Positions 3,284 through 24,000 of a DNA stretch of 24,000 bases are shown piece after piece. Location of the stretch: NCBI RefSeq assembly GCF_039525035.1, contig NZ_BAAAHE010000011.1, forward strand, positions 100,270-124,269. Reading direction: 5' to 3'. Position 1 is the first letter of the stretch. Each line of letters starts with the position of its first letter. The stretch is from Sporichthya brevicatena. Lineage in GTDB: Bacteria > Actinomycetota > Actinomycetes > Sporichthyales > Sporichthyaceae. The notes beneath the pieces are model-generated. The model worked only from the letters and a program-made list of their open reading frames with translations, was not told where the DNA came from and did no database searches. The translations under genes were made by a program, and so were the position numbers.

Positions 3284-3297
3284 TTCCTGATGCTTCG

Positions 3298-6636: not shown

Positions 6637-6685
6637 GAAACAACCTCCGTAGGGCGACAGAGCGATCCCAGCGGCTGCAGCGCGC

Positions 6686-6711
6686 TTCTCCCTCCCCCGC
6701 GGGTGGGAGAA
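6686..6711. promoter_or_regulatory. GC-rich imperfect palindrome/hairpin in the tkt / response-regulator divergent intergenic region
   Basis: The sequence is TTCTCCC-T-CCC-ccgc-GGG-T-GGGAGAA. It forms 7 bp + 3 bp of pairing around one T:T mismatch and a 4-nt loop. Its centre is about 6.5 bp from the midpoint between the two start codons (6636 and 6774). Confidence 0.25.
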
Positions 6712-6773
6712 CGGGGGTGAATTGCGCGGTGGAACCTCGCCCCCACCACGGTTCCGGTCCTAGCCTGTGCGCC

Positions 6774-7463
6774 ATGTCCATGCCGAGCCCCGCCGAGGCC
6801 CCCGCCCCACGCCCGGCCCTGCGCCTCGTGCTGGTCGACGACCACGAGATGGTGCTGCACGGCCTGACCGCGATGCTGGCCCACTTCTCCGACCAAGTCG
6901 TCATCGCCGGGACGGCGACCACGTACGACCAGGCCCTCGCCCTCGTCGACCGGACGCGTCCCGACGTCGTCCTCTGCGACGTCCGACTCGGCCGCACCAG
7001 CGGGATCGACCTGTGCCAGGCGATCACCACGGCCTACCCCGAGGTCTCCGTTGTCCTGCTCTCGGTCTACGACGACGAGCACTACCTGTTCCAGGCGCTC
7101 CGCGTGGGCGCGCGGGGCTACATCCTCAAGCGCGTTGACGCCGCCGAGCTCGTGACCCACCTCCAGCGTGCCTGTGACGGGGAGACCGTGGTCGACCCGG
7201 CCCTGGCCGGGCGCGTCGCACTGTCCGCCGCGCGCATCCACGCCGGCGAGTTCTGGCCCGGCGCACACCTGGGTCTGACCCAGCGTGAGTCCGAGGTGCT
7301 CGAACTGCTCGTCGCCGGACGTTCCAACCGCGCCATCGCGTCGACGTTGGTGATCAGCGAGGACACGGTGAAGACGCATCTGCGCGGCCTGTACCGGAAG
7401 TTGGAGGTGACCGACCGCGCGGGCGCGGTCTCGGTCGCCCTGCGGGAGGGCATCTTCCGGTGA
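6774..7463 (+). CDS. NarL/FixJ (LuxR-type HTH) family response regulator
   Basis: The REC domain reads LRLVLVDDHEMVL...DVVLCDVRL (phospho-acceptor Asp)...VVLLSVYDD...GYILK. The C-terminal LuxR HTH reads LTQRESEVLELLVAGRSNRAIASTLVISEDTVKTHLRGLYRKLEV. I chose the ATG at 6774 rather than the track's GTG at 6717, so the start is somewhat uncertain. Confidence 0.9.
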   Translation: MSMPSPAEAPAPRPALRLVLVDDHEMVLHGLTAMLAHFSDQVVIAGTATTYDQALALVDRTRPDVVLCDVRLGRTSGIDLCQAITTAYPEVSVVLLSVYDDEHYLFQALRVGARGYILKRVDAAELVTHLQRACDGETVVDPALAGRVALSAARIHAGEFWPGAHLGLTQRESEVLELLVAGRSNRAIASTLVISEDTVKTHLRGLYRKLEVTDRAGAVSVALREGIFR

Positions 7464-8635: not shown

Positions 8636-9719
8636 ACAGCGGGAACTCCGGACGCGCACTCCGGGGCCGGACGCCGCAGGCACGGTCGAGGTGGTAGCCC
8701 TCCACCGCGGCGACCTCGTCGCTTGAGCCGAACACCAACGGCAGACGCTGGTGCAGGGCGGTCGGACTGATGTCGAGGACGCGACCACGCCCGGTGCTCG
8801 CGCACCCTCCCGCCTGCTCGATGACAAACGCGATCGGGTTGCACTCGTACAGCAGCCGCAGCCGTCCCGCCCGCGTCCCGGACCGGCTGTCGGCCGGGTA
8901 GAGGAACACCCCGCCCCGGGTGAGGATCCGGAACGCCTCCGCCACCAGCGAGGCCACCCAGCGCATGTTGTAGTCCTGGCCGCGTGGCCCCGCGCGGCCG
9001 GCGAGGCAGTCGGAGATGAAGTCACGAACGGGCGCCGGCCAGAAGCGCTCGTTCGACACGTTCACCGCGAACTCCGAGGCCGACTCGGGCACCCGCAAAT
9101 GCGGATGGGTCCGCACCAGCACACCGGTGGTGCGGTCGAGCGTGAAGGCCACCGCACCCGCGGCGGTCGCGAGGACGAGCACCGTCGCCGGGCCGTAGAG
9201 CGCGAAGCCGGCGCACACCTGGTCCCGGCCCGGTTGCAGGAACTCGGTGAGGTCCACCTCCGCGCCGGTGCCGGTACGCCGCAGCACCGAGAAGATCGTC
9301 CCCACCGGGATGTTGACGTCGAGGTTGCTCGACCCGTCGAGCGGGTCGACCGCCACCAGGTAGGGCCCACGGGCGTCGGGGAACACCTGCGGCTGCGCGA
9401 GCTCCTCCGACACCACCGCCGCGACCGCGGGCACGTCGCGCAACGCGGTCAGGACGACGTCGTTGCTCAGCACGTCGAGGGGCTTCTGCACCTCGCCCTG
9501 GACGTTGAGCTCCCCCGCGTCGACCGCGGCCGCGGCGAGGCGCCCCGCGCCGACGTGGTCGGCGATCCGCAGGACAGCCTCCCCGAAGGCCCGGATCACG
9601 TCGCCGAGGTCACCGCTGGGGTCGAGGGACCGGATCACGTGGCCGTCGGCGTACTGCTCGAGCGAGACGCGCGCCGCCGCCGAGGACCGCTCGACGACCC
9701 CCGCCACCGACTCACGCAT
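8604..9719 (-). CDS. fbp: Class 1 fructose-1,6-bisphosphatase (likely FBPase/SBPase of the CBB cycle)
   Basis: The protein has the motifs NVQGEVQKPLDVLSND, AVDPLDGSSNLDVNIPVGTIFS, YGPATVLV, MRWVASLVAEAFRIL and GGVFLYPAD...GRLRLLYECNPIAFVIEQAGG. I trimmed the track ORF to the ATG at complement 9719-9717, which overlaps the fba stop (ATGCGTGA). Confidence 0.9.
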   Translation of the reverse strand: MRESVAGVVERSSAAARVSLEQYADGHVIRSLDPSGDLGDVIRAFGEAVLRIADHVGAGRLAAAAVDAGELNVQGEVQKPLDVLSNDVVLTALRDVPAVAAVVSEELAQPQVFPDARGPYLVAVDPLDGSSNLDVNIPVGTIFSVLRRTGTGAEVDLTEFLQPGRDQVCAGFALYGPATVLVLATAAGAVAFTLDRTTGVLVRTHPHLRVPESASEFAVNVSNERFWPAPVRDFISDCLAGRAGPRGQDYNMRWVASLVAEAFRILTRGGVFLYPADSRSGTRAGRLRLLYECNPIAFVIEQAGGCASTGRGRVLDISPTALHQRLPLVFGSSDEVAAVEGYHLDRACGVRPRSARPEFPLFNTRTLFRGR

Positions 9720-10725
9720 GAGCGCCCACGACCGCTCGACGCGCCGCGGCCGCGGCGGCCCGTGCACAGTTCTCCGCCAGCCGGTTCTGAGCTCCCGTCA
9801 CGGCGTTCGGGTTGCCCCGCCAGGTACGGAGCGCGTCGTCGACGAGCGCACGTCCGAACGAGAAGGTCAGCGCCCACGGCGCCGCCTGGTCCTCGCCCGC
9901 CAGCCGGTTGACGGCGGCGAGGTTCGCGCAGGCCTGGGCGTTCGACTGGCCGCCGGAGAGGAACGCGACGCCGGGCACCGCGGAGGGCAGCTGGGCGCGC
10001 AGCACCTTGAGCGTGCGCCGCGCGACCTCCTCCGGCGGGCTCGGGACGGGGCAGGCGTCTCCCGCCACGACCATGTTCGGCTTGAGCACGATGCCGGCCG
10101 GGTCGACGCCGAGAAGGTCGAGTTGGTCGAAGACCTCGCCGAGCACCTTGTGGGTCACCGCCTGGCAGACCTCGATCTCGTGGCGGCCGGTCATCAGGAC
10201 CTCGGGCTCCACGATCGGCACGAGGCCCGCCTCCTGACACAGCGCGGCGTAGCGCGCGAGCGCGTGCGCGTTCGCCTTGACGATGCGCTTGGTCGCCCGC
10301 GACACCTCGAGAACGGCCCGCCACTTGGCGAAGGTCGCGCCCATCTCCCGGTACTCGGCCAGCCGGCCGCCGAGGCCGTCCAGACCCTGGGTCACGACGC
10401 CCCCACCCGAGAACGGCAGGGGCACCGTGCCGGTGTCGACCTTGATGCCGAGTTCGATCTCGCGTTCCCGCGCCGCTACGACGAACGGGGTCCCGTCGGC
10501 CAGCGACTGGCGAAGGGTCTCGTCACAGAGGATCATCCCGGAGACCCAGGTCGATAGCCGAGGGGTCGTCAGCAGCAGTTCGCGGTAGTCCCGCCGCACC
10601 TGCTCCGACGCCGGAACTCCGGCCGCCTCCAGCCGCTTCGACATCGTCCCGATGCTCTCGTCGGCGGCGAGAATTCCGTGCCCGGGCCGCACCAACCGGC
10701 GCGCCGTCGTGGCGAGTTCGTGCAT
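9712..10725 (-). CDS. fba: Class I (Schiff-base, eukaryote-type) fructose-bisphosphate aldolase
   Basis: The protein is near-collinear with animal and plant class I aldolase motifs: GILAADESIGTMSKRL, GIKVDTGTVPL, TQGLDGL, FAKWRAVL, LVPIVEPEVL, VLKPNMVV (Schiff-base Lys context), FLSGGQS and PWALTFSFGRAL. The start is the ATG at complement 10725-10723, with GGGAGG 6 nt upstream. Confidence 0.9.
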   Translation of the reverse strand: MHELATTARRLVRPGHGILAADESIGTMSKRLEAAGVPASEQVRRDYRELLLTTPRLSTWVSGMILCDETLRQSLADGTPFVVAAREREIELGIKVDTGTVPLPFSGGGVVTQGLDGLGGRLAEYREMGATFAKWRAVLEVSRATKRIVKANAHALARYAALCQEAGLVPIVEPEVLMTGRHEIEVCQAVTHKVLGEVFDQLDLLGVDPAGIVLKPNMVVAGDACPVPSPPEEVARRTLKVLRAQLPSAVPGVAFLSGGQSNAQACANLAAVNRLAGEDQAAPWALTFSFGRALVDDALRTWRGNPNAVTGAQNRLAENCARAAAAAARRAVVGAHA

Positions 10726-10811
10726 GTGTGGCCTCCCTGCGCTCCGCGCGCCGTCTCGTCCCACCGAGCCTGCGGTTCATCGCCCGGCGGGCACATCACC
10801 CTGCGGGGGAA

Positions 10812-12371
<1,560 letters not shown>

Positions 12372-12382
12372 GGAGCTCAGCA

Positions 12383-12775
12383 GTGCGCATCACCCAGGGG
12401 ACCTTCTCCTTCCTTCCCGACCTCACCGACGACGAGATCGCCGCCCAGATTCAGTACTGCCTGGATCACGGCTGGCCCCTGTCGATCGAGTTCACCGACG
12501 ACCCGCACCCCCGCAACACCTACTGGGAGATGTGGGGTCTGCCGATGTTCGATCTCGTCGACCCCGCGGGCGTTCTGCTGGAGATCAACGCCTGCCGGCA
12601 GGCACGGCCCGACTGCTACATCCGCGTGAACGCGTACGACGCGAGTCTCGGGCGCCAGACGACCGCGCTGTCGATCCTCGTCCAGCGACCGGCGGACGAG
12701 ACCGGGTTCCGGCTGATCCGGCAGGAGAGCTCCGACCGTCGGATCAGCTACACCACCGAACGCCTCGCGCGATGA
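12383..12775 (+). CDS. cbbS: RuBisCO small subunit, red-type
   Basis: The GTG at 12383 has GAGGAG 7 nt upstream. The protein reads (V/M)[56 protein letters not shown]..., which matches the red-type CbbS N-terminus ([15 protein letters not shown]). It is in frame within track ORF 11864..12775. Confidence 0.95.
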
Positions 12776-13695
12776 CCGAGGAGCTGCTGCCCGCCGACGC
12801 CGTCGTCGACCTGGCCGCGGCGCGGCGGGACGCCGGGATCGACGCGGTCCTGGCGCAGCTCGACACCGAGCTGGTCGGACTGGCCCCGGTGAAGCAACGG
12901 ATCCGCGAGATCGCCGCGCTGCTGCTCGTCGACCGCACGCGCGCCCAGTTCGGCATCACGACGGCCAAACCGAACCTGCACATGTGCTTCACCGGCAACC
13001 CCGGCACCGGGAAGACCACCGTCGCGCTGCGGATGGCCGACCTGCTCCACCGGCTCGGCTACCTCCGCCGCGGCCACCTGGTCAGCGTCACCCGCGACGA
13101 CCTGGTCGGGGAGTACGTCGGGCACACCGCACCGAAGACCAAGGACGTCATCAAGCGCGCCATGGGCGGGGTGCTCTTCATCGACGAGGCGTACTACCTC
13201 TACAAGGTCGGCAACGAGCGGGACTACGGCGCGGAGTCGATCGAGATCCTGCTCCAGGTCATGGAGAACCACCGGGACGACCTCGTCGTCGTTCTCGCCG
13301 GGTACGCCGACAAGATGGACACCTTCTTCGCGGCCAACCCCGGGATGCAGAGCCGGATCGCCCACCACGTGACCTTCCCGGACTACACCGTCGACGAGCT
13401 CCGGCAGATCGCCCATCTGATGGTTGATCAGCTGGGCTACCGGTTCTCCCCCGAAGCCGAGGACGCCCTCACCCGCTACCTCGACCGCCGGGTCGGGCAG
13501 CCGTGGTTCGCCAACGCGCGCAGCGTCCGCAACGCCGTCGAGCGTGCACGACTGCGGCAGGCGCAGCGCCTCGTGGAGGGCGAGAACACTATGGTGACCC
13601 TGGACACGCTGACGACGATTCGGCCCGAGGACATCCTGGCCAGCCGCGTCTTCAGCGAGGCCGCCGAGGCGGGCAGAACCGTCCGCTCGGCCTGA
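12772..13695 (+). CDS. cbbX: CbbX, AAA+ red-type RuBisCO activase
   Basis: The ATG overlaps the cbbS stop (ATGA at 12772-12775). The protein has [22 protein letters not shown], Walker [14 protein letters not shown], Walker [12 protein letters not shown], and LAGY...[24 protein letters not shown]. Confidence 0.92.
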
Positions 13696-13717
13696 CGGCG
13701 AACGGCCAGGAGCGACG

Positions 13718-14593
13718 ATGGCGACGAACTCACGCCTCCGCGTCCTGGTCGAACTGGCGGCGGCCGGCTCGGTGCGGGGCGCCGCCGCGCGCCTGTTCGT
13801 CACCGAGTCCTCGGTGTCGTCCTCCCTCAGCGCGCTCAGCGCCGAGGTAGGCGTGCCCCTGGTGGAGCGGATCGGCCGCGGTGTCCGGCTGACCCCGGCG
13901 GGCGAGCGCTACGTCGCCTACGCCCAGCGCATCCTCAACCTCCACGACGAGGCCGTCCTGGCCGCTCGCGGCGAGGCCGACCCCGAGCACGGTTCGGTCC
14001 GGATCGCCGCGGTCACCACCGCGGGCGAACTGCTCATCCCCGCCCTGCTCGCATCGTTCCGCCGGAAGTACCCGGGCGTGGTGCTCCACGTCGACGTCGC
14101 CCCCCGCGGCCGCGTGTGGCCGATCCTGACACGGCACGAGGCGGATCTCGTCGTGGCCGGGCGACCACCTGCGAGCGTGAACGACGTCCGGGTGTGCGCC
14201 ACCAGCCCCAACACCCTCGTCGTGGTCGGTGCGCCCGGCACCCCGGGCGATCTCGCCACCGTCACCTGGTTGCTGCGGGAACCGGAGTCCGGGGTCCGGG
14301 CGACCTGCCTCGCCCTGCTCGGACGGCTGGAGATCACGCCGCCGCTCATGACCCTCGGCTCGCACGGCGCCGTCGTCGCCGCGGCCGTCGCCGGTCTCGG
14401 CGTCACGATGGTGTCGCGTCAGGCCGTGGAGTCCGAACTCGAGGCCGGGACACTGATCGAGATCGCGGTCCCGGGCACTCCGATGGACCGCCCGTGGAAC
14501 GCGGTGACGCAGATCAGTCCCACCGCACCGACCCGGCTGCTGGTCGAGCACCTGCTCGCCGACACGCACCTCGGCTGGGCGCCGGCGGACTGA
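13718..14593 (+). CDS. cbbR: LysR-family transcriptional regulator (putative CbbR by context)
   Basis: The N-terminal wHTH reads LRVLVELAAAGSVRGAAARLFVTESSVSSSLSALSAEVGVPLVERIGRGVRLTPAGE, followed by a LysR substrate-binding-type C-terminus. AGGAG lies 5 nt upstream of the ATG. The gene starts only 22 nt after the cbbX stop. The CbbR identity is contextual and not shown by sequence alone. Confidence 0.8.
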   Translation: MATNSRLRVLVELAAAGSVRGAAARLFVTESSVSSSLSALSAEVGVPLVERIGRGVRLTPAGERYVAYAQRILNLHDEAVLAARGEADPEHGSVRIAAVTTAGELLIPALLASFRRKYPGVVLHVDVAPRGRVWPILTRHEADLVVAGRPPASVNDVRVCATSPNTLVVVGAPGTPGDLATVTWLLREPESGVRATCLALLGRLEITPPLMTLGSHGAVVAAAVAGLGVTMVSRQAVESELEAGTLIEIAVPGTPMDRPWNAVTQISPTAPTRLLVEHLLADTHLGWAPAD

Positions 14594-14684
14594 CCACCCC
14601 CACGCTCCTCCGCGCGGGTGATGGCAGGACGTCGCCCGCACCGCAGGCTGTGATCAGAGCCCGCGTCAGGTGAGGAGCGAAGTC

Positions 14685-15572
14685 ATGTCACGTCAGCACC
14701 CGATCATCTCGGTCACGGGATCGTCCGGTGCCGGCACGACCTCCGTGATGCGCACGTTCGAGCAGATCTTCCGCCGGGAGCGCATCACCGCCGCGTTCGT
14801 CGAGGGCGACAGCTTCCACCGTTACGACCGCGCGGAGATGCGCGCGGCGATGGCCGAGGCGGCCCGCCGCGGCGACCACTCGTTCAGCCACTTCGGACCC
14901 GAGGCCAACCTCCTGGACGAGCTCGAGGAGCTGTTCCGCGCGTACGGCGAAACCGGGACGGGCCGCGTCCGCCGCTATCTCCACGACGAGGCGGAGGCGG
15001 CGGTGTACGGCCAGGCCCCCGGGACCTTCACGCCCTGGGAGATGCTCCCGACGGACAGCGACCTGCTCTTCTACGAGGGCTTGCACGGCGCCGTCCTCAC
15101 CGACACGGTCGACGTCGCGCGCCACGCGGACCTGAAGATCGGCGTGGTGCCGGCGATCAACCTCGAGTGGATTCAGAAGCTCCATCGCGACAAGCAGGAG
15201 CGCGGGTACTCGACCGAGGCCGTCACCGAGACGATCCTGCGGCGCATGCCGGACTACGTGAACTACATGTGCCCGCAGTTCTCACGCACCGACGTGAACT
15301 TCCACCGGGTTCCCGTGGTCGACACGTCGAACCCCTTCATCGCGCGCACGATCCCGACGGCGGACGAGTCCATGCTGGTGATCCGGTTCCGCGACCCGCA
15401 CGGCATCGACTTCCCCTACCTGATCGCGATGCTGCACGGCTCGTTCATGTCGCGGCCGAACACGATCGTCTGTCCGGGCGGGAAGATCGACCTCGCCATG
15501 CAGCTGATCTTCACGCCGATGGTGCTCCGCCTGATGGAGAACCGGCACACCGAGCTCGCCGTCGCCGGCTGA
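14685..15572 (+). CDS. prk: Phosphoribulokinase
   Basis: The protein starts MSRQHPIISVTGSSGAGTTSV (P-loop). It also has FVEGDSFHRYDR, LFYEGLHG, NLEWIQKLHRDK..RGYS and PDYVNYMCPQFSRTDVNF. The ATG at 14685 has GAGGAG 7 nt upstream, so I trimmed the track ORF 14670. Confidence 0.95.
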   Translation: MSRQHPIISVTGSSGAGTTSVMRTFEQIFRRERITAAFVEGDSFHRYDRAEMRAAMAEAARRGDHSFSHFGPEANLLDELEELFRAYGETGTGRVRRYLHDEAEAAVYGQAPGTFTPWEMLPTDSDLLFYEGLHGAVLTDTVDVARHADLKIGVVPAINLEWIQKLHRDKQERGYSTEAVTETILRRMPDYVNYMCPQFSRTDVNFHRVPVVDTSNPFIARTIPTADESMLVIRFRDPHGIDFPYLIAMLHGSFMSRPNTIVCPGGKIDLAMQLIFTPMVLRLMENRHTELAVAG

Positions 15573-15614
15573 CGCTCCTCGACCCCACCCGACCCGAGCA
15601 AGGAGAGCTCTGCC

Positions 15615-16298
15615 GTGCCCGAGATCGCACCGACGCTCGTCGCGTCAGTCCTGCCCGCGAACTTCGCCGAACTCGGCGACCAGGTCGTCGCGATCGAGCA
15701 GGCCGGGATCGACCGGATCCAGTGGGACGTGATGGACGGCCGGTTCGTCCCGAACCTGACGTTCGGGCCGGACGTGATCGCCGCGTGCCGGGACCGCGTC
15801 ACGATGGGCTTCGAGGCCCACCTGATGGTGGAGCACCCCGACCCGATGCTGTCGCGCTGGGTCGAGGCCGGCTGCGGCATCGTCATCGTGCACGCCGAGG
15901 CCTGCCGGCATCTGCACCGCACGCTGTCGACGATCCGCGAGCTCGGGGCGAGGCCGGGCGTCGCGCTCAACCCCGCAACGGGCCTCGAGACCGTCGAGCA
16001 CGTGCTCGACCTGGTCGACCTGCTGCTGATCATGACTGTGAACCCGGGGTTCGGCGGGCAGGCCTACCTGGCCTCGATGGAGCCGAAGATCGCCGCCGCC
16101 CGCGCCGAGATCGACCGGCGCGGGCTCGACATCGAACTGGAGGTGGACGGCGGTATCGGGCCGGCGACGATCGCCGCGGCCGCCCGGGCCGGGGCTCGCG
16201 TGTTCTGCGCAGGCTCCGCCCTGTTCGCGGGCAACTCCCTGGCCGACCGCGCCGCGGAACTGCGCCGGGCGGCGACGGCGCTCCCCCTCGCTGTGTGA
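15615..16298 (+). CDS. rpe: Ribulose-phosphate 3-epimerase
   Basis: The protein has IQWDVMDGRFVPNLTFGP, FEAHLMV, LIMTVNPGFGGQ and LEVDGGI. The GTG start at 15615 has AGGAG 9 nt upstream. Confidence 0.93.
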   Translation: MPEIAPTLVASVLPANFAELGDQVVAIEQAGIDRIQWDVMDGRFVPNLTFGPDVIAACRDRVTMGFEAHLMVEHPDPMLSRWVEAGCGIVIVHAEACRHLHRTLSTIRELGARPGVALNPATGLETVEHVLDLVDLLLIMTVNPGFGGQAYLASMEPKIAAARAEIDRRGLDIELEVDGGIGPATIAAAARAGARVFCAGSALFAGNSLADRAAELRRAATALPLAV

Positions 16299-16651: not shown

Positions 16652-17500
16652 TCAGGCCGGACAGCGGGCCGGGATCCGCAACAGCTCCGGGTCGAACCGG
16701 GCCCGGAGCTCGGTGGAGGCGGCCGCCGCGCGGACGATCATCACCGCGTCGTCGGGGCGGTCCTTCACGTCGACCGCCGCGCTGTCCGGGCCGTCCCGGT
16801 GGGCCATGAGCCAGTCGTAGAGCATCCAGTCGAGCGCACTCGCCGCGGTCATCGCGTCGAGGTCGTCCGTGGGGAGCGCCGCGAGCACCTCGCCGATCGC
16901 CGCGCGGTGCTCGTCGCGGGCGGCGTCCTTCTGCACTCCCGAGCTGTCGAACAGGAGCATCGACAGCGTCGCCGGCAGGCGGCGGCCGTCCTCGGTGCGC
17001 ACGACCCAGCGCGCGCCGCGCCAGGGCCGGTCGCCGTCGACCCACACCAGGTCGCCGTACCCGGCGACGACACCGATCCCGGGCTCGTCGAGCTCACCCT
17101 CGAACGGGGCCGGCCCGAGCAGCGACAGCGGGCGACGGGCCATCACGCTCATGAGGAACGCCGTCCCGAGAATCTGGCCCGCTCGGGTCGAGATCACCGC
17201 TCCCATCGACTCGACGGCCGCGTGGTACTCCCAGCTGAGCCGGTCCATCGCGCGGTGCAGCTCGCGCAGCCCGGTGCGTTCGGCGTCGTCCGCCGGGCCA
17301 CGGCCGCCGCCGAGGATCTCGCCGAAACGCCCGGCGGCGATGATGAGCGCGTCGTCCAACGCCTCCAGGTGGGTCGGCAGCAGGCGGCGGGGCTCGTCGT
17401 CGGTCTTCACCAACGCGTCGAGCCGGACCGGCACACCGGTCGGGGTGGACCAGTGGAACCCGATCTGGCCCTCGTCCTGCACGATCACCGGCCGCGTCAC
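16652..17500 (-). CDS. Hypothetical protein (282 aa), last gene of the hyp operon ('X4')
   Basis: The GTG start (complement 17500-17498) overlaps the stop of the upstream gene (GTGA). The protein starts VTRPVIVQDEGQIGFHWSTP... Its composition is globular and it has no motif I recognise. I trimmed the track ORF 16652..17587. Confidence 0.65.
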   Translation of the reverse strand: MTRPVIVQDEGQIGFHWSTPTGVPVRLDALVKTDDEPRRLLPTHLEALDDALIIAAGRFGEILGGGRGPADDAERTGLRELHRAMDRLSWEYHAAVESMGAVISTRAGQILGTAFLMSVMARRPLSLLGPAPFEGELDEPGIGVVAGYGDLVWVDGDRPWRGARWVVRTEDGRRLPATLSMLLFDSSGVQKDAARDEHRAAIGEVLAALPTDDLDAMTAASALDWMLYDWLMAHRDGPDSAAVDVKDRPDDAVMIVRAAAASTELRARFDPELLRIPARCPA

Positions 17501-18261
17501 GACGTCCCCCGCTGCGCCACCAGTTCCAGTTGCCGCATCAGATCGGCCTCCAGCCGTGTCACCTCGAACTCGGTCAGGCGGTCGCACGCGAAGTCCCAGT
17601 GCAGCGCCACGAGGTCGCCCTCGACGGGGTCGGCGACGAAGGCGTCACCGTCGACCCGGTAGTCCACCCGACGGTCGTACTCCGCGCTCAGGCTCAGCCG
17701 CCCGTCGGTGAGGTCCAGTCGGCGCGTGCGCACGGTCAACTGGTCCGCGTGGACGGCGATGACCCGGCCCCAGCCGATCCGGCAGGACTCCAGGACGTGC
17801 AGCGGCTCCGGGCGGCCGGCGTCGAGCAGCCGGGACCATGGGTACACCCCGAAGACGTGGAAGGTGTGCGAGGGCGCCACCTCCGCACTCAGGTCCTCCG
17901 ACAGGTGCGGCCAGTAGTGCCCGGCCTGCGCACGGAGGTTGCTCAGCAGAACCTCGGCGAACTGCTCGCGCGGCAGCTCGTCGGTCAACTGGTTACCCAC
18001 CCAGTACCCGCGGACCACGTCCGGGTCCATGGGCGAACGGCCCGTCAGATTCGCGATGGTCTCCTGGTACGGCCACGCCCCCGAGAAGCGTCGCGCGGCG
18101 GCCTCGACCGCAGCGGGCTCGTCCTGACCGCAGGCGGCCCGAGCGAGCACCGCGGCCCCGGCCGGGCCGCAGTACCCGAGCGCGTTCGGGCCGTGCGCGT
18201 ACCGGGCGAACAGCACGGATCCGCTGACGCCCTCGGCGAGGAGCCGGTCAGCGCGCGGCAC
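17497..18261 (-). CDS. Hypothetical protein (254 aa, 'X3'): unknown N-terminal domain + C-terminal HypC-like domain
   Basis: The proposed GTG start (complement 18261-18259) overlaps the hypD 3' end by 14 nt. The upstream part of track ORF 17497..18669 is an out-of-frame shadow of hypD. The N-terminal region reads LFARYAHGPNALGYCGP...HVFGVYPWSRLL. The C-terminal region, SCRIGWGRVIAV...VEGDLVALHWDFACDRLTEFEVTRLEADL, parallels HypC (MCLGIPGQVVEV...VGDWVLVHVGFAMALIDEAEA). The exact start is uncertain. Confidence 0.65.
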   Translation of the reverse strand: MPRADRLLAEGVSGSVLFARYAHGPNALGYCGPAGAAVLARAACGQDEPAAVEAAARRFSGAWPYQETIANLTGRSPMDPDVVRGYWVGNQLTDELPREQFAEVLLSNLRAQAGHYWPHLSEDLSAEVAPSHTFHVFGVYPWSRLLDAGRPEPLHVLESCRIGWGRVIAVHADQLTVRTRRLDLTDGRLSLSAEYDRRVDYRVDGDAFVADPVEGDLVALHWDFACDRLTEFEVTRLEADLMRQLELVAQRGTS

Positions 18262-19381
18262 CCGCGCCCACCATCTGCGCGGTCTCGCGGTGCAGCCGCC
18301 CGAAGTTGTAGTACGCGGCGCACGCGCCCTCGGAGGACACCATGCACGTGCCGATCGGGGTGGCCGGTGTGCACGCCGTGCCGAAGACCTTGCACTCCCA
18401 CGGGCGGATGACCCCCTTGAGCACCTCGCCGCACTGGCACGCCTTCGGGTCGGCCACCCGGACGCCGGGCATGCCGTAGCGTGCCTCGGCGTCGAACTGC
18501 GCGAGGTCCGAGCGCACCCGCAGCGCGCTTTGGGAGATGAAGCCGAGACCTCGCCACTCGAAGTGCGGACGCAGCTCGAACGTGCGCGCCAGCAGCTCCA
18601 GCGCGGCCGGGTTGCCCTCGGGCCGGACCACGCGGCTGTACTGGTTCTCCACCTCGCACCGGCCCTCACGGATCTGCGTGAGCAGCATGTGCACGGACGC
18701 GAGGATGTCGAGCGGCTCGAACCCGGCCACGACGATCGGCAGGCCGTACTGCTTCGGGATGAACTCGTAGGGCCGCGTGCCGACGACGGTCGAGACGTGG
18801 CCCGGGCCGAGGAACCCGTTGAGGCGCATGTCCGGCGAGTCGAGGATCGCCTTGATCGGCGGGACGATCGTGACGTGGTTGGAGAAGACGCTGAAGTTCG
18901 TCACGCCCAGGTCGCCGGCACGCATCAGGGTCACCGCGGTCGAGGGAGCCGTGGTCTCGAAGCCGACCGCGAAGAAGACCACCTCGCGGTCCGGGTTCTC
19001 CACCGCGATCTTCAGCGCGTCGAGCGGTGAGTAGACGAACCGCACGTCGGCGCCGCGGGCCTTGGCGTCGAGCAGGCTGCCGTTCGAGCCCGGCACCCGC
19101 ATCATGTCGCCGAACGTCGTGAAGATGACGTTCGGCTGCTCCGCCAGCCAGATGGCGTCGTCGACGCGACCCATGGGGATCACGCAGACCGGGCAGCCCG
19201 GCCCGTGCACGAGCTCCACGTTCGACGGCAGGAGGTGCTCGAGGCCGTGCCGGTAGATCGTGTGCGTGTGGCCACCGCAGACCTCCATGAACGCGAACCT
19301 GTCCTCGCCCGCCAGGTCGGCGATGGCGGCGACCAGGCTGCGCGCCGCCGCGGGGTCACGGAACTCGTCGACGAACTTCAT
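18248..19381 (-). CDS. hypD: [NiFe]-hydrogenase maturation protein HypD
   Basis: The protein has MKFVDEFRD, MEVCGGHTH, HGPGCPVCV, FFAVGFETTAP, GPGHVS, and the C-terminal Cys cluster ...CQCGEVLKG...CKVFGTACTPATPIGTCMVSSEGACAAYY. Confidence 0.95.
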   Translation of the reverse strand: MKFVDEFRDPAAARSLVAAIADLAGEDRFAFMEVCGGHTHTIYRHGLEHLLPSNVELVHGPGCPVCVIPMGRVDDAIWLAEQPNVIFTTFGDMMRVPGSNGSLLDAKARGADVRFVYSPLDALKIAVENPDREVVFFAVGFETTAPSTAVTLMRAGDLGVTNFSVFSNHVTIVPPIKAILDSPDMRLNGFLGPGHVSTVVGTRPYEFIPKQYGLPIVVAGFEPLDILASVHMLLTQIREGRCEVENQYSRVVRPEGNPAALELLARTFELRPHFEWRGLGFISQSALRVRSDLAQFDAEARYGMPGVRVADPKACQCGEVLKGVIRPWECKVFGTACTPATPIGTCMVSSEGACAAYYNFGRLHRETAQMVGAGAAR

Positions 19382-19686
19382 CGGACACTCCCTTCGGGAA
19401 GCGCGCCGCTGGCGGCGCCGAAATCGGAGGACGCGAACGCGGCTATCTCGTCGACGTACTCCTGGCCCATGCGCTGGACCTGGTCAAGGGTCGCCTTGGC
19501 CTCGGCCTCGTCGATGAGCGCCATCGCGAAGCCGACGTGCACCAGGACCCAGTCCCCCACGTCCGGGGGCTGGGCGGCGAGCAGGCGAGTGCTGATCACG
19601 CGGCGTACGCCACTGACGTCGACCTTCGCGAGATGACCGGCGGCGTCGACGACCTCGACGACCTGACCGGGGATCCCCAGGCACAT
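19378..19686 (-). CDS. hypC: HypC/HybG/HupF-family hydrogenase chaperone (copy 2, 102 aa)
   Basis: The protein starts MCLGIPGQVVEV (N-terminal Cys2) and contains DVGDWVLVHVGFAMALIDEAEA. AAGGAG lies 6 nt upstream of the ATG. Its stop overlaps the hypD start (ATGA). Confidence 0.9.
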   Translation of the reverse strand: MCLGIPGQVVEVVDAAGHLAKVDVSGVRRVISTRLLAAQPPDVGDWVLVHVGFAMALIDEAEAKATLDQVQRMGQEYVDEIAAFASSDFGAASGALPEGSVR

Positions 19687-19737: not shown

Positions 19738-20835
19738 TCAGCAGATGCGGGGCAGCGGGTCGCCGACGAGCATGTCGACGATCCGGGTGCCGCCGAACGG
19801 GGTCCGCATGGCGACCATGCCGCCGGGGTTCTCGACGATCTCGCCGACCACCGCCGCGGATCCGCCGCCGGCGGTCTCGCGCAGCGCGACGACCGCCGCC
19901 TCGGCCTCCTCGGGCGCGACGATCGCGGTGAACACGCCCTCGTTCGCGACGTGGACCGGGTCGATGCCGAGCATGTCGCAGGCGCCGAGCACGGCCGGCG
20001 CCACCGGCAGCAGACCCTCGTCGAGCACGACCCCGAGCCCGGTCTGACCGGCGAGCTCGTTGCAGACCGTGGCCAGGCCCCCACGGGTGGCGTCGCGCAT
20101 CCAGCGGGTCGACGGGGCGGCCACCAGCAGGGCGGCCACCTGCTCGTGCAGCGCCATGGTGTCCGAGCTGATGTCGGCCTCGATGTCCAGGTTGCCGCGG
20201 GCGAGCATCACCGCCATGCCGTGGGCGCCGAGCGGACCGGACACGACGACGCGGTCGCCGGCCCGGACCCGGTCGGCCGCGAGCGAGACGCCCGCCGGGA
20301 CGACGCCGACACCCGCCGTGGAGATGTACAGCCCGTCGGCCGTGCCGCGGGGCACGACCTTGGTGTCGCCGGTGACGACGTGGACGCCGGCGTTCGCGGC
20401 CGCCTCGCGCATGTCGGCGACGATCCGCTTGAGGTCCTCGACCGGGAAGCCCTCCTCCAGCACGAAGGCGGCGGAGAGCCACTGCGGCACGGCCCCGGAG
20501 ACGGCGAGGTCGTTGACCGTCCCGTGCACGGCGAGGTGCCCGATCGAGCCGCCCGGGAAGAACAGCGGCTGCACGACGAAGGAGTCGGTCGAGAAGGCGA
20601 GCCGTTCCCCCGACGGCAGTTCCAGGACCGCCCCGTCCCCCAGGTTCTCCAGCTCGGGGTTGCGGAACGCCTCGACGAAGACGTGGTCGATCAGGGCCGC
20701 CGAGGACTTGCCGCCGGCCCCGTGCGCCATCGTCACGACGGAGTCGGTGAACCGCGGGCGGCGCTTACGGAACTCCTCGATGCGCAGGAGCATCCGCCCC
20801 TCGGCGTCGACCTGGGTCGCTGGATCCGGGGACAT
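19738..20835 (-). CDS. hypE: [NiFe]-hydrogenase maturation protein HypE
   Basis: The protein starts MSPDPATQ... It has an AIR-synthase-like fold signature (MAHGAGGKSS, HGTVNDLAVSGA, VTGDTKV) and the C-terminal PRIC motif. The start is the ATG at complement 20835-20833, sharing 1 nt with the upstream stop (TGATG). The first 246 codons of track ORF 19738..21573 are a shadow over the SIS gene. Confidence 0.95.
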   Translation of the reverse strand: MSPDPATQVDAEGRMLLRIEEFRKRRPRFTDSVVTMAHGAGGKSSAALIDHVFVEAFRNPELENLGDGAVLELPSGERLAFSTDSFVVQPLFFPGGSIGHLAVHGTVNDLAVSGAVPQWLSAAFVLEEGFPVEDLKRIVADMREAAANAGVHVVTGDTKVVPRGTADGLYISTAGVGVVPAGVSLAADRVRAGDRVVVSGPLGAHGMAVMLARGNLDIEADISSDTMALHEQVAALLVAAPSTRWMRDATRGGLATVCNELAGQTGLGVVLDEGLLPVAPAVLGACDMLGIDPVHVANEGVFTAIVAPEEAEAAVVALRETAGGGSAAVVGEIVENPGGMVAMRTPFGGTRIVDMLVGDPLPRIC

Positions 20836-21509
20836 CACGCACCTCCGTTGACGTGGGCCGGTGACGACAGGGTTTCCTGGACGGTCGACCACAGGTGCCA
20901 GGCGAGGTGCGCCTGTGCTTCCTGGATCCGGTGCACGCTCTGCGACGCGACGGTGAAGCTGAAGTCCACGTCGTCGCTGACGCCGAGGCGGCCACCGTCG
21001 TAGCCGGAGAACGAGATCGTGAGCATCCCGCGCCGCCGGGCCTCGCCCATCGCGACGACGAGGTCCTCCGAGCAGCCGGACGTGGACAGCGCGAGCGCGA
21101 TGTCGGTCGAGCGGCCGCAGGCGACGAGCTGCCGGGCGAACACGAGGTCGAAACCGACGTCGTTGCTGAGCGCGGTGAGGATCGCCTGGTCGTCGGACAG
21201 GCACCAGGCGGGCAGCGACTGGCCGCGCGGTGCCCGCGCGAACAGCGACGCCACGGTGGTCGCATCGGTCGAGGAGCCGCCGTTGCCGAACGTGTAGAGG
21301 CGGCCGCCGGCCCGGAACCGGGCCACCATGGCCTGCGCCGCCGCGCCGATCCTCTCGGCGTGCTCGGCCACGGTCCGCCGCTGCAGCGCAGAGCTCTCGT
21401 CGATCTTCGCGCGGGCCGACGCCGCCAGGTCGGCCAGCAGCTTCTCGGGGTTGTCCTCGCTGGCGTCGAGGAACGGGTAGAGGAAGCCGGTCTCGTTCAC
21501 CGCGGTCAT
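20835..21509 (-). CDS. SIS-domain protein, GmhA/DiaA-like (phosphoheptose-isomerase-like), hyp-operon embedded ('X2')
   Basis: The protein is collinear with GmhA. It has YTFGNGGSSTDATTVASLF (compare CGNGGSHCDAMHFAEEL), LSNDVGFDLVFARQL, DIALALSTSGCSEDLV, ISFSGYDGG and VHRIQEAQAHLAWHLW. Its start overlaps the stop of the upstream gene (ATGA). Confidence 0.85.
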   Translation of the reverse strand: MTAVNETGFLYPFLDASEDNPEKLLADLAASARAKIDESSALQRRTVAEHAERIGAAAQAMVARFRAGGRLYTFGNGGSSTDATTVASLFARAPRGQSLPAWCLSDDQAILTALSNDVGFDLVFARQLVACGRSTDIALALSTSGCSEDLVVAMGEARRRGMLTISFSGYDGGRLGVSDDVDFSFTVASQSVHRIQEAQAHLAWHLWSTVQETLSSPAHVNGGA

Positions 21510-22228
21510 GACGGGCTCCCCACGCGCGCCAGCGCGAAGCCGGCGTGGACGAGGAGCAGGTCGCCGATCGCAACCTCGCCGACGAGGGTCACGTCGACCT
21601 CCTCGCTGCCCAGACCGGCACGCACCCGCGCAGCCTCACCCGGACCGAGCGGCGGGGTGACGACCTCACCGAGGCGGCCCTCGTCACTGCACGTGATGCA
21701 CGTACCCTCGGCGGTCGGCGGCTCCGGTTCGAGCAGCCCCGGGTGCTCGAAGCAGACGTGGGTCAGTTCCCAGAGCAGGTGGTAGAGCCGGACGTAGCCG
21801 CCGGCCAGCGGTGCGGCCGGGTCGTCGGTGTCGAGCCAGAGCACGTGGTCGGCCGCGCCAGGCTCGGGCCGCACACCGGAACCGATCCACACGGTGGTCA
21901 GACCCCACGCCGGCGCGCGGAGCAGCAGGTCGCGGGCGACGGGGTCGTCGGCGCGGGCGATGACGCAGAGCAGGTCTCCCGCCTGGGTGAGGACGCGGGC
22001 CTGGGCGGCACGGTCAGCCTCGGCGAGAACGAACGCGGGCAGGGCACGCGTGCCGACGATGACCGGGTGCACGAACTCCACCGCGACGTGGTGGGCGTGC
22101 GAGGGCCAGTCGGGCGCCGCGACCCACAGCGTCGCGCCGGCGTGGAACCGGCGAGCCATCGCGAGCGCGGCCGCCGCCAGGTCCTCGGACAGTGCGGCGT
22201 CGGAGACGGGCGGGAGCGTCGCGGTCAT
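21506..22228 (-). CDS. Fusion protein ('X1', 240 aa): degenerate SIS-like N-terminal domain + C-terminal HypC-like domain
   Basis: The ATG at complement 22228-22226 overlaps the stop of the preceding hypC (ATGA). The N-terminal part is GmhA-like in layout (RFHAGATLWVAAPDWPSHAHHVAVEFVHP...GDLLCVIARADDP...VWIGSG...YVRLYHLLWELTHVCFE), but the GNGGS loop is replaced by AAPDWPS. The C-terminal part, TCITCSDEGRLGEVV...EVDVTLVGEVAIGDLLLVHAGFALARV, parallels HypC. I trimmed the track ORF 21506..22468. Confidence 0.75.
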   Translation of the reverse strand: MTATLPPVSDAALSEDLAAAALAMARRFHAGATLWVAAPDWPSHAHHVAVEFVHPVIVGTRALPAFVLAEADRAAQARVLTQAGDLLCVIARADDPVARDLLLRAPAWGLTTVWIGSGVRPEPGAADHVLWLDTDDPAAPLAGGYVRLYHLLWELTHVCFEHPGLLEPEPPTAEGTCITCSDEGRLGEVVTPPLGPGEAARVRAGLGSEEVDVTLVGEVAIGDLLLVHAGFALARVGSPS

Positions 22229-22470
22229 GACTCGCTCATCTCGTCGAGCAGGCCGAACTCCTGCATGAGGCCGACGGTGCGCTCGGCCTCCTCCGGCGTC
22301 ACCCGGGTGAGCGCGTACCCCGCGTGGACGATGACGTAGTCCCCGACGGCGAGATCGGGCAGGTAGTCGAGGCACACGGCGCGCGACTCCCCCACGAAAT
22401 CGACGTCGGCCATGACTCGTCCTCCGCCGGACTCGATCGATGTGATGCGACCGGGCACCGCAAGACACAT
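22225..22470 (-). CDS. hypC: HypC/HybG/HupF-family hydrogenase chaperone (copy 1, 81 aa)
   Basis: The protein starts MCLAVPGRITSI and contains AVGDYVIVHAGYALTRVTPEEAE. Its ATG lies 1 nt after the hypF stop. Confidence 0.9.
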   Translation of the reverse strand: MCLAVPGRITSIESGGGRVMADVDFVGESRAVCLDYLPDLAVGDYVIVHAGYALTRVTPEEAERTVGLMQEFGLLDEMSES

Positions 22471-22471
22471 C

Positions 22472-24000
22472 TCAGTCCCTCCTTCCCTTGCGCAGCATTG
22501 CTCGGGCGACGACGGCCTGGCCTAGGGCCAGTCCACCGTCGTTACCGGGAATCCGACTGTGCGTCAGCACATCCAGGTCGCGGCGGGCCAGCGCCCGCGC
22601 GAGGTCACGCGCCAGGATGCGGTTGGCGAACACTCCACCCGAGATCCCGACGGTGCGCACTCCGGTCCGGTCGGCCGTCGCCGTCAGCAGCTCGACCGTC
22701 GCAGCGGTGAGCGCCTCGTGGAAGCCGAGCGCGATGTTCGGCACCGGCACACCGGCGTCGCGGGCCGCCACGACCGCCGCCACGAGGGGGCCGACCAGGA
22801 TTCGGCCGTCGACGACCGGCGCCGACAGCGGATGGGCGGCGCTCGCCGTCGCGGCCGCGGCCTCGAGTTCGATCGCCGCCTGCGCCTCGTACGTGATCGC
22901 GTGCCGGACGCCCAGCAGGGAGGCGACACCGTCGAACAGCCGGCCCACGCTGCTGGTCGGCACGCACGCGATGCCGGAGCGGAGCTGGCTGCGCACCGCC
23001 GCCACGGCGGCCTCGGGCACCCCGGCCGGCGTCCAGTCCCGGCCGGCCAGACCGGCGTGGTGGAGAAGGGCGAGCGCGACACGGAACGGCTGGCGGACCG
23101 CCACGTCGCCACCGGGCAACGGGAACTCCTCCAGGTGGCCGACGCGCTCGGCGGTCGTGACGTCCTCGCCGATCGCGAGGATCTCCCCGCCCCACACGTG
23201 GCGGTCGCAGCCGAGGCCGGTGCCGTCGAAGACCGCCCCGATCACCGGGCGGCCGACCCGGCCGTGCTCGGCGAGCAGGGACGCGAGGTGCGCGTGGTGG
23301 TGCTGAACCGGCAGCAGCGGCAGGTTCTCGGCCTCGGCCCGCTCCGCCGCCCAGCGACTGGTGAGGAAGCCGGGGTGCAGGTCGGCGGCGACGGCCTGCG
23401 GCGGCACGCCGTGCAGCGCGATCAGGTGGTCGACCGAGCGGAGGAACGCCTCGCGCGCCTCCAGCGTCGACATGTCACCGAGGTGCGCGGAGGTGTAGGC
23501 GTTCGGCCCGGCGGCGATCGTGATCGTGTTCTTCAGTTCCGCACCGACCGCGAGCACCACGGTGTCCGTCGCGGGGATCTCGGTCGGCAACGGGGCCATC
23601 CCCCGCGAACGGCGGAGCACGACCTCGACGTCCGGCCGCACCCCGTCCTCGATGCGGACGATGGAGTCCTCGCACGGCACGGCGATCGGGCGGTCGTTGA
23701 TGAGGAATGCGTCGGCGATGCCGGCCATGCGGGTCCGCGCGTCGTCGTCCTGCCAGCACAGGGGCTCGCCGGACAGGTTCGCCGACGTCATCACGAGGAC
23801 GTCGGGCGGCGGCACGTCGGAGCCGGGCACCGACGCGAACAGCAGGTGGTGCAGCGGCGTGTAGGGCAGCATCAGGCCGAGTTCGTCGAGGCGGGGCGCG
23901 ACCGCGTCGACGATCCCGCTCCCGGGCCGCCGGCGCAGCAGCACGATCGGCGCGGCGGTGGAGGTCAGCGCGCGCTCGGCTGCGCTGCCGACCTCCACCA
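22472..24000 (-). CDS. hypF: Carbamoyltransferase HypF, C-terminal portion (gene continues beyond the window)
   Basis: The YrdC-like region reads LPYTPLHHLL...LVMTSANLSGEPL. The Kae1/HypF C-terminal region reads LAVGAELKNT...HLGD...VQHHHAHLAS...FDGTGLGCD..VWGGE...GISGGVFAN..L. The frame is open to the window edge, so the apparent start at 23998 is an artefact. Confidence 0.93.
   Translation of the reverse strand, partial: VEVGSAAERALTSTAAPIVLLRRRPGSGIVDAVAPRLDELGLMLPYTPLHHLLFASVPGSDVPPPDVLVMTSANLSGEPLCWQDDDARTRMAGIADAFLINDRPIAVPCEDSIVRIEDGVRPDVEVVLRRSRGMAPLPTEIPATDTVVLAVGAELKNTITIAAGPNAYTSAHLGDMSTLEAREAFLRSVDHLIALHGVPPQAVAADLHPGFLTSRWAAERAEAENLPLLPVQHHHAHLASLLAEHGRVGRPVIGAVFDGTGLGCDRHVWGGEILAIGEDVTTAERVGHLEEFPLPGGDVAVRQPFRVALALLHHAGLAGRDWTPAGVPEAAVAAVRSQLRSGIACVPTSSVGRLFDGVASLLGVRHAITYEAQAAIELEAAAATASAAHPLSAPVVDGRILVGPLVAAVVAARDAGVPVPNIALGFHEALTAATVELLTATADRTGVRTVGISGGVFANRILARDLARALARRDLDVLTHSRIPGNDGGLALGQAVVARAMLRKGRRD

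Follow-up and report, generated by a model that had tools for sequence, protein, structure and literature searches.

In this study, a pair of adjacent genes, designated X1 and X2, was analysed in the hyp cluster of Sporichthya brevicatena. We propose, with a probability of about 0.6, that they are diverged copies of a GmhA-type gene whose products form an obligate heterodimer with a single active site split between the two partners, and that this heterodimer serves as an accessory of the hyp system. The window, that is the whole stretch of DNA analysed, covers 24,000 nucleotides (GCF_039525035.1, NZ_BAAAHE010000011.1, positions 100,270 to 124,269 of the forward strand). The genes and motifs described at this locus in the initial annotation are real, and the relevant part of the window is organized as follows.

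22472..23998, minus strand: hypF (Pfam HypF_C_2, HypF_C and Sua5 domains), with its 5' part past the window end
22225..22470, minus strand: hypC copy b, 81 aa, with a canonical N-terminal Met-Cys (PF01455, 1.6e-24)
21506..22228, minus strand: X1, 240 aa, GmhA-fold pseudo-SIS protein with a HypC-like domain (translation, AlphaFold2, Foldseek)
21749..22198, minus strand: N-domain of X1, aa 11-160 (E. coli GmhA alignment, PDB profile, hhalign, residue census)
21521..21700, minus strand: C-domain of X1, aa 177-236, HypC-like beta-barrel (PF01455, PDB HypC chains, residue census)
20835..21509, minus strand: X2, 224 aa, GmhA-like SIS protein (Pfam SIS_2, NCBIfam, alignment)
19738..20838, minus strand: hypE (AIRS and AIRS_C domains), overlap-coupled to X2
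19378..19686, minus strand: hypC copy a, 102 aa (PF01455, 4e-25)
18248..19381, minus strand: hypD (PF01924, 1.3e-155)
17497..18261, minus strand: DUF6390 protein (PF19927, 1.4e-90), with a HypC-like C-terminus by alignment to HypC

The N-terminal acylphosphatase and zf-HYPF parts of hypF were located in locus L005, and the DUF6390 gene begins with a GTG codon at 18261. The coupling of X1 and X2 to hypC, to each other and to hypE, as first described, was found again at the three junctions: an ATGA shared by the stop codon of hypC copy b and the start of X1, a second ATGA where X1 meets X2, and a TGATG at the boundary of X2 with hypE.

The GmhA-type layout attributed to X2 was borne out. Its translation contains the four motifs FGNGGSS, LSTSGCSEDL, SGYDGG and RIQEA, the protein matches Pfam SIS_2 (PF13580) at 7e-17, which assigns it to the GmhA/SIS_2 fold, and its closest sequence matches in the PDB are GmhA chains (about 4e-23). 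With the NCBIfam equivalog models for GmhA (TIGR00441, NF010546 and NF001628), X2 reached only 105 bits (cut-off 209), 112 bits (cut-off 276) and 88 bits (cut-off 265), respectively, and X1 gave no match.

In GmhA, the cis His, Glu and His residues bind zinc and carry out the acid-base chemistry. When X2 was aligned with the actual sequence of E. coli GmhA, the positions of these residues (H61, E65 and H180) were found to be occupied by T85, L89 and W204, and neither His nor Glu was ever encountered at X2 positions 85 and 89 in the locus census. The earlier claim that X2 lacks the catalytic residues had been based in part on the wrong histidine, as the catalytic one is H180 (KVIH) and not H175 of RIQEIH; since the three true positions are T, L and W, the conclusion still stands. 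The phosphosugar-binding residues, on the other hand, are retained: N76, S79, D82, N116-D117, S142-T143-S144 and S147, together with Q196. Their counterparts in GmhA are N53, S55, D94, S119-T120-S121 and S124, with Gln172 as the trans glutamine. N76, S79, N116-D117, S142-T143-S144, S147 and Q196 are conserved in at least 79/80 related loci and in 12/12, and the census found Q196, S142-T143-S144, S147 and N116-D117 in 92 loci out of 92. X2 also carries a conserved additional N-terminal segment, 'FLYPF'.

For X1, the replacement of the GNGGS loop by AAPDWPS was confirmed in the translation. Both phosphate loops (GNGGS and STSG) are lost from this protein, as are the phosphosugar-binding residues. 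Nevertheless, its AlphaFold2 model (pLDDT 89, pTM 0.86) has the GmhA fold: the best structural match in the PDB is GmhA 5lu7_A (E 8.6e-10, TM 0.69), and the best 32 Foldseek matches comprise nothing but GmhA and the closely related DiaA. A search of the PDB with the X1 profile retrieved HypC and GmhA chains only and aligned 'HHvavEF' of X1 with 'qHiagEF', and X1 and X2 were related to each other by hhalign (E 4e-4). With the single X1 sequence, only a chance match to a methyltransferase was obtained, and a profile was needed.

Residues were matched by means of E. coli GmhA and of sequences intermediate within the family, among them 'FGNSEDAQHVAVEF' and 'LIQEAHETLYH'. In this alignment, H47, E51 and H150 of X1 correspond to H61, E65 and H180, i.e. 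to the cis metal-binding and catalytic residues of GmhA, the equivalence of H150 with H180 depending on the placement of a one-residue indel: MAFFT with the intermediates brings the two into register, whereas hhalign is one position off. The three residues are kept in 92/92 loci of the census. The family counts more than 5780 clusters, and some of its divergent members (P0306, P0346 and P0279) are devoid of the His motif. Further His and Glu residues of X1 are H44, H54, E154, H157, E161 and H162. The profile alignment with an explicit residue check, proposed in the initial annotation, thus yielded a reciprocal pattern, in which X2 has lost H61, E65 and H180 and kept the phosphosugar residues, and X1 the reverse. 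The view of X1 as a merely degenerate copy has to be abandoned, as it preserves in every locus of the census exactly the three cis residues that X2 has lost.

This complementarity is meaningful in the light of the architecture of GmhA, whose site receives its Glu and His from one subunit and its Gln from the other (PMC4697000). In a modelled complex of the M. tuberculosis enzyme, the loops and the Gln come from one monomer and the Glu from the other (PMC7705670). Since each GmhA site draws on two subunits, one complete site would be present in a dimer of X1 with X2. X1 would provide the His/Glu/His set (H47, E51, H150) and its additional His/Glu residues, and X2 would add Q196 as the trans Gln as well as the pocket for the phosphosugar. 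The reciprocal site would be dead in the lineage of the window. One metal-plus-phosphosugar site per dimer would result, tethered through X1 to the HypC-like barrel. The proposed site thus shares with GmhA (SIS_2, PF13580; PDB 2x3y, 2xbl, 5lu5, 2i22) both the fold, present in the X1 N-domain and in X2, and the two-subunit architecture, the full set of residues being found across the pair: H/E/H in X1, and the trans Gln, the GNGGS and STSG loops and the GND motif in X2. It differs from GmhA in being divided over two genes or two domains, so that no chain is complete, and in the extra elements of both partners, namely the invariant His/Glu residues and the HypC-like domain of X1 and the 'FLYPF' segment of X2. 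The location of the phosphate loops in trans to the Glu/His residues is taken from the modelled M. tuberculosis complex and not from a crystal structure; if the loops acted in cis, the pair would instead possess two half-sites, one for metal only and one for sugar only.

A full catalytic set is present in neither X1 nor X2 alone, and both could therefore be thought of, as in the initial annotation, as a non-catalytic ligand-binding or oligomerization module. By analogy with DiaA, the SIS folds would then only oligomerize, perhaps sense a phosphosugar, and hold the HypC-like domain, HypE and HypD together. Indeed, DiaA and HobA are GmhA folds that have been converted into protein scaffolds (PMC4697000), binding DnaA; they likewise have an incomplete catalytic set and a use unrelated to heptose. 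Furthermore, DiaA was among the structural and sequence matches, and the conserved 'FLYPF' segment of X2 could be a docking element. However, the Glu and part of the substrate-binding residues are missing from DiaA (PMC4697000, PMC7705670), and neither the phosphate and sugar ligands of X2 nor the cis metal triad of X1 would be expected to persist in a scaffold with the strictness given above. DiaA is moreover a homotetramer that has lost substrate ligands, whereas X1-X2 shows strict conservation of ligand and metal residues, which are shared between the partners, and X2 reached 87 bits with the DiaA equivalog model NF008138, far from its cut-off of 352. A scaffold thus fits the residue conservation poorly and is considered rather unlikely. 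With the cis triad kept in X1 and the phosphosugar residues and trans Gln in X2, a split but complete GmhA-type site is the better fit.

According to the database names, X2 is a 'D-sedoheptulose-7-phosphate isomerase' and X1 a 'HupF' or 'HypC/HybG/HupF family' protein. These names, together with the best PDB matches of X2, would make it an ordinary heptose isomerase that merely lies beside hyp genes, and X1 just a long HypC/HupF paralogue. Against this, T, L and W stand in X2 where GmhA has H61, E65 and H180, and GmhA loses its activity in E-to-Q mutants (PMC4697000); X2 falls under every GmhA equivalog cut-off; and the N-terminal 160 residues of X1 are a GmhA fold and not an extension of HypC. 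The downstream heptose pathway was also searched in the genome, which is 99.5% complete, the search covering GmhB and HldE. Neither GmhB (TIGR00213) nor TIGR02199 had a match, and HldE (TIGR02198) was not found, only generic kinases being retrieved, none of them above 60 bits, where the cut-off is 345. X2, the sole SIS_2 gene of the genome, thus also differs from GmhA in its context, which is a hyp operon in a genome that yielded neither of the downstream heptose genes searched (GmhB and HldE). The first impression that the pair are probably not heptose isomerases is therefore upheld, and the housekeeping explanation was rejected as hardly credible.

The same decision follows from the gene neighbourhood. 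In 80 out of 80 related loci, X1 is directly followed by X2, and both the pairing and its residues are repeated in every one of them, so that the association is not due to chance. In most of these loci hypE comes after X2, and the DUF6390 gene is, also in most, a conserved neighbour. In addition, nine of the 12 loci sampled from other classes of the phylum contain the X1 N-domain and X2 fused in a single ORF. Both this strict adjacency and the occurrence of X2 fused to the X1 domain speak against a coincidental position of X2 beside the hyp genes. Such fusions are abundant in the databases; when these were searched, the best 120 matches were all fusions of 389-419 aa, assigned, where a name was given, to Rubrobacter or Rubrobacteraceae. 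The AlphaFold2 model of a natural fusion (pLDDT 89.7, pTM 0.88) has an X2-type half that superimposes on GmhA structures with a TM of about 0.9. In these other lineages, both halves of the proposed site would be brought together as a single-chain pseudo-dimer.

Tandem-SIS isomerases (the GlmS isomerase domain, PDB 2v4m and 2j6h; 3fj1) also have two SIS domains per chain, and they superimpose on the fusion relatives over about 400 columns with TM values of 0.58-0.63 and 10-15% identity. The domains of the fused proteins, however, belong to the GmhA subtype and include a putative metal site, and their functional context is hydrogenase maturation. The residues of the reciprocal site are Q and D/D/H in the fusions versus T and T/L/Y in pairs of the window type. 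This change is a coordinated loss involving both proteins, and it counts as one or a few evolutionary events and not as many independent ones. Concerning the idea of a SIS/pseudo-SIS heterocomplex tethered to HypC, the accessory role and a probable heterocomplex are thus favoured by the adjacency and the natural fusions. The nine fusions are devoid of the HypC-like domain, and that tether is therefore not essential to the core function.

In HypC, the free N-terminal Cys that follows the initial Met ligates iron. The barrel of X1 begins at about aa 185 of 240, and aa 198-236 match HupF_HypC (PF01455) with 32.7 bits, above the gathering cut-off of 28.5, the first 14 or so positions of the profile being missing; with TIGR00074 the barrel scored 23 bits, below the cut-off of 48. 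The HypC chains 3vyr and 2z1c are the best PDB sequence matches of the X1 profile. The 'VHxG' motif of HypC contains a conserved His; its counterpart in X1 is H228, which lines up with this residue in the two HypC copies of the window. The domain resembles HypC/HybG/HupF (PF01455) in its Pfam score, in this His and in its hyp operon, but it differs in its C-terminal position, as a consequence of which it has no free N-terminal Cys, and in its absence from the fused relatives. In place of a Met-Cys start, the nearest cysteines are those of an internal motif, C177-x-x-C180, ahead of the barrel. C177, C180 and H228 are present in 80/80 loci. With its CxxC and the conserved HypC His, the X1 barrel is therefore a candidate iron-binding or HypD-docking module.

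The same features could be those of a metallochaperone working under oxic conditions, in which the His/Glu cluster of X1 (H44, H47, E51, H54, H150, E154, H157, E161, H162) and Q196 of X2 would store Fe, Ni or Zn or deliver it to HypD, the large subunit or the HypC-like domain. The phosphosugar pocket would then be structural or regulatory. The GmhA zinc site is kept, more invariant His/Glu residues lie on the same two helices, the fused barrel provides a CxxC and a HypC-type His, and the pair was seen only with hyp genes. However, nickel is already served by hypA and hypB, which are present and have nickel functions, and the strict conservation of the phosphosugar pocket would be left unexplained. 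A metallochaperone is hence judged unlikely.

Under the split-site proposal, the pair would be a dedicated hyp accessory for aerobic uptake hydrogenases, of group 2a in this window and of 1h type, most likely acting during assembly of Fe(CN)2CO, alongside HypE, HypC and HypD. Its linkage to hyp genes in other genomes, on which the initial annotation had made its interpretation depend, was observed: hypD is present in 60 of the 62 genomes with X1, and 149 genomes with HypD are devoid of X1. A restriction to one hydrogenase subgroup was not found, as the pair accompanies two large-subunit classes with a mutual identity of only 24-26%. In a plasmid collection, the only match to X1 came from Mycobacterium intracellulare; Cupriavidus megaplasmids gave none.

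HypX is the aerobic CO-ligand synthase of Cupriavidus-type hydrogenase maturation. It is comparable with X1-X2 in role only, as another hyp-linked accessory specific to oxygen-exposed hydrogenases, and has no relation to the pair in sequence or fold. No HypX-type formyltransferase-crotonase protein was found in the genome; its four formyltransferase matches, two frames of insufficient length for HypX (297 and 315 aa) and proteins of the PurU and Fmt types, were rejected as HypX. As a speculation to which we attach little probability, X1-X2 might be an enzyme compatible with oxygen that produces or supplies the precursor of a diatomic ligand of Fe(CN)2CO, for example CO from a ketose-phosphate enediol at the composite metal site. 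It would then fill the role of HypX in aerobic hydrogen oxidizers without HypX, and iron bound to HypCD or to the attached HypC-like domain would receive the product directly.

Literature searches on HypX with group 1h or Mycobacterium, and on MSMEG locus tags, returned nothing functional. Published work already records a 'gmhA' beside a 'hypothetical protein' in operons of group 1h/2a hydrogenases, with no function given (PMC11879354, PMC5900883). Of the new maturation accessory initially claimed, the presence of the genes was thus known, and only the mechanistic reading of the pair is new.

Thousands of database protein clusters of this module are mislabelled 'heptose isomerase' and 'HupF'. 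The module or its fused form is a near-constant companion of the 1h/2a hyp genes in hundreds of genomes. With group 1h and 2a [NiFe]-hydrogenases, soil bacteria live on atmospheric hydrogen, and these enzymes are wanted as air-stable catalysts; the assembly of their metal centres under oxygen is only partly known. A split metal-plus-phosphosugar site with an iron-chaperone-like domain would turn a vague 'gmhA in the operon' into a hypothesis testable residue by residue, and would illustrate cleanly how the active site of an enzyme can be divided among paralogues. The X1-X2 pair is also a candidate for gene sets used in heterologous expression, and it points to an unstudied step in the building of air-exposed hydrogenases.

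In the window genome (about 72% G+C), the hyp genes lie on the minus strand from 24000 down to about 16650, and X1 and X2 are encoded in the middle of this cluster.

Features of the window and of the adjoining sequence
22472-23998, minus: hypF, its 5' part beyond the window
22225-22470, minus: hypC-b, between hypF and X1
21506-22228, minus: X1 (240 aa), between hypC-b and X2
20835-21509, minus: X2 (224 aa), between X1 and hypE
19738-20838, minus: hypE, after X2
19378-19686, minus: hypC-a, after hypE
18248-19381, minus: hypD, after hypC-a
17497-18261, minus: DUF6390 gene, downstream of hypD
16652-17587, minus: 311-aa ORF, after the DUF6390 gene, last of the cluster
4561-16298: Calvin-cycle cluster adjoining the hyp genes (transketolase, FBPase, class I aldolase, RuBisCO large subunit, CbbX-type AAA protein, LysR regulator, phosphoribulokinase, ribulose-phosphate epimerase)
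2286-3515 and 1099-2775 of L005 (same contig, past the window end), minus: NifU-Rieske fusion and NHL-repeat proteins, between the protease and hypF

The motifs quoted in the initial annotation were all found in the translations, and the ATGA, ATGA and TGATG overlap junctions it described are real. Just past the window, the contig carries NHL-repeat, NifU-Rieske and TPR-like genes, a maturation protease, the [NiFe] large (535 aa) and small subunit genes, and hypA and hypB, which run divergently. The NifU-Rieske type presumably corresponds to the HucE/HhyE iron-sulfur proteins, reportedly needed for mycobacterial H2 oxidation. The C-terminus of the DUF6390 protein is a HypC-like segment with an internal Cys (SCRIGWGRVIAV...GDLVALHWDFA), which brings the HypC-like modules of the operon to four: two are canonical, and two are C-terminal fusions. 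The 311-aa ORF had no Pfam match; it occupies the equivalent place in four related loci (L036, L037, L063 and L080), all with the window-like hydrogenase class.

In a single-sequence search, nothing matched the N-terminal 170 residues of X1, whose sole Pfam match was HupF_HypC (aa 198-236). The X1 family, which is large and well conserved and forms over 5780 clusters when grouped at 90% identity, is named 'hypothetical', 'HupF' or 'HypC/HybG/HupF family' in databases. When its profile was compared with the PDB, HypC and GmhA chains were matched exclusively, the X1 segment HHvavEF being aligned to qHiagEF of B. pseudomallei GmhA, which contains the zinc/catalytic His64 and Glu68. Profile-profile comparison also related X1 to X2 (E 4e-4, 142 columns). 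In the AlphaFold2 model of X1 (120 homologues; pLDDT 89, pTM 0.86), aa 11-160 form an alpha/beta domain and aa 185-236 a beta-barrel; in Foldseek, the model's top 32 PDB matches were GmhA or the close relative DiaA (best 5lu7_A, E 8.6e-10, TM 0.69, 21% identity). Taken together, these results identify X1 as a GmhA-fold domain joined to a HypC-like barrel, as had first been guessed. The barrel keeps the HypC His (H228) and, instead of the free N-terminal Cys of HypC, has an internal C177-x-x-C180.

X2 is a SIS_2 protein (7e-17). Among NCBIfam models it scores highest with those for GmhA, but reaches 88-112 bits where the cut-offs are 209-276. Ahead of the SIS core, aa 7-40 (window about 21390-21491) carry an invariant T-x-FLYPF...E...LL.DL..S...K..ES segment. 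GmhA has no counterpart of this segment, which may therefore serve in docking or at an interface.

Both proteins were aligned with E. coli GmhA, taken from NC_000913.

GmhA site residues and their counterparts in X1 and X2
H61: X1 H47; X2 T85
E65: X1 E51; X2 L89
H180: X1 H150, depending on indel placement, in which the X1/X2 profile comparison and the E. coli GmhA alignment differ; X2 W204
Q172 (trans Gln): lost in X1 (A142; T in most relatives); X2 Q196
GNGGS loop: lost in X1; kept in X2 (N76, S79)
D58: X1 H44; X2 D82
GND motif: lost in X1; kept in X2 (N116-D117)
STSG loop and S124: lost in X1; kept in X2 (S142-T143-S144, S147)

X2 had been said to lack the catalytic residues, and T85, L89 and W204 bear this out; that argument cited the His of RIQEIH (H175), but in E. 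coli GmhA it is H180 that is catalytic. A residue census was carried out on 80 related and 12 distant loci. X1 H47, E51, H54, H150, E154 and E161 were found in 92/92 loci, as were X2 Q196, E197, S142-T143-S144, S147 and N116-D117; none of the census loci had His or Glu at X2 positions 85 and 89. Divergent members, such as 'FGNSEDAQHVAVEF' and 'LIQEAHETLYHVLWEL', bridge the X1 family to GmhA.

In published GmhA structures, the catalytic Glu, Gln and His lie on helices alpha2, alpha6' and alpha6, so that one subunit contributes Glu and His, and its neighbour contributes Gln (PMC4697000). In a modelled M. tuberculosis complex, the substrate loops and Gln are on one monomer and Glu is on the other (PMC7705670). 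On that geometry, with the cis/trans placement of the loops taken from the modelled complex, an X1-X2 dimer would have exactly one complete site, X1 providing the metal/catalytic half and X2 the phosphosugar half.

By pattern scan (one genome per species), X1 relatives were found to be encoded at at least 568 places. In all 80 loci examined, X2 follows X1 immediately; hypE comes next where the contig extends, with few exceptions, and the DUF6390 gene mostly lies upstream of X1 or downstream of hypD. One X1 64% identical to that of the window is from L013 (JBLNEK010000105.1), a MAG labelled 'Candidatus Sericytochromatia bacterium'; its phylum sample consists of the same genomes as that of the window, so its label or binning looks wrong.

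The X1 profile matched 62 genomes in a 401-genome phylum sample; outside the window's class, the matches mostly covered the N-domain alone, within open frames of 400-470 aa. In nine of the 12 distant loci fetched, a single in-frame chain has an X1-type SIS domain connected by a linker to an X2-type one, with the FLYPF segment directly after the linker (L089-L098). These nine fusions have no HypC-like barrel and still neighbour hypF, hypC, hypD, hypE and structural genes; fused lineages can thus do without the HypC-like tether. The fused form is abundant: the best 120 database matches to one fusion were all 389-419 aa long, and those with named sources came from Rubrobacter, Rubrobacteraceae or unclassified Actinomycetota. 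The AlphaFold2 model of a fusion (pLDDT 89.7, pTM 0.88) places the two domains relative to each other with confidence; its X2-type half resembles GmhA (TM about 0.9), and the whole chain resembles tandem-SIS enzymes (TM about 0.6).

In the fusions, the reciprocal half-site is retained as well: the X1-type domain has its Gln, and the X2-type domain has Asp, Asp and His. At these positions, split pairs of the window type carry T in X1 and, in X2, T, L and either Y or W. Thus, four residues of one predicted cross-interface site have decayed jointly across two genes, the other site being intact. This pattern is coherent with a GmhA-like interface, but it stems from few independent events.

The linkage of the pair with hyp genes extends to other genomes, HypD being present in 60/62 of those with X1; the other two are partial matches in fragmented assemblies. 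A further 149 genomes have HypD without X1. Restriction to one hydrogenase subgroup, raised in the initial annotation, was not borne out, as two large-subunit classes accompany the pair: a window-like class (77-84% identity, C-terminal ...DSCLVCTVH, NHL and TPR genes; 6 loci) and a class of about 600 aa (24-26% identity, C-terminal ...DPCLPCGVH; 36 loci). The latter C-terminus we take to be the group 1h/5 signature. The presence of the pair beside more than one class agrees with the published remark that 1h and 2a operons often include gmhA (PMC11879354; also PMC5900883, PMC7735108). In M. smegmatis, MSMEG_2706, annotated gmhA, lies beside hypE MSMEG_2705 (PMC5445863, table). PMC11879354 describes the operon's gmhA as 'heptose 1-phosphate adenylyltransferase', a different enzyme of the pathway; the published annotation is therefore loose. 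In the open literature searched, the gene's presence is noted and it is called gmhA, its neighbour being 'hypothetical', with no function, heteromer or split-site idea.

In the window genome (99.5% complete), X2 is the sole SIS_2 gene. GmhB and HldE domain II had no match there, HldE domain I gave weak generic kinase matches alone, and the HypX search found no formyltransferase of sufficient length or with the crotonase half. The adjacent Calvin-cycle genes suggest hydrogen-driven autotrophy, and sedoheptulose and other ketose phosphates are thus products of neighbouring genes.

We infer a physical X1-X2 interface in the split form, a bound metal and ligand, the maturation step served and, if it occurs at all, turnover. 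X1-X2 would form a split GmhA-type site to which X1 gives the metal and X2 the phosphosugar; in the window's lineage, the site would be attached to a HypC-like barrel with H228 and C177-x-x-C180. The pair would act with HypE and HypCD while the iron centre is assembled. X1 and X2 are variants of the known GmhA and HypC families; what is new is the mechanistic reading of their putative biochemical role.
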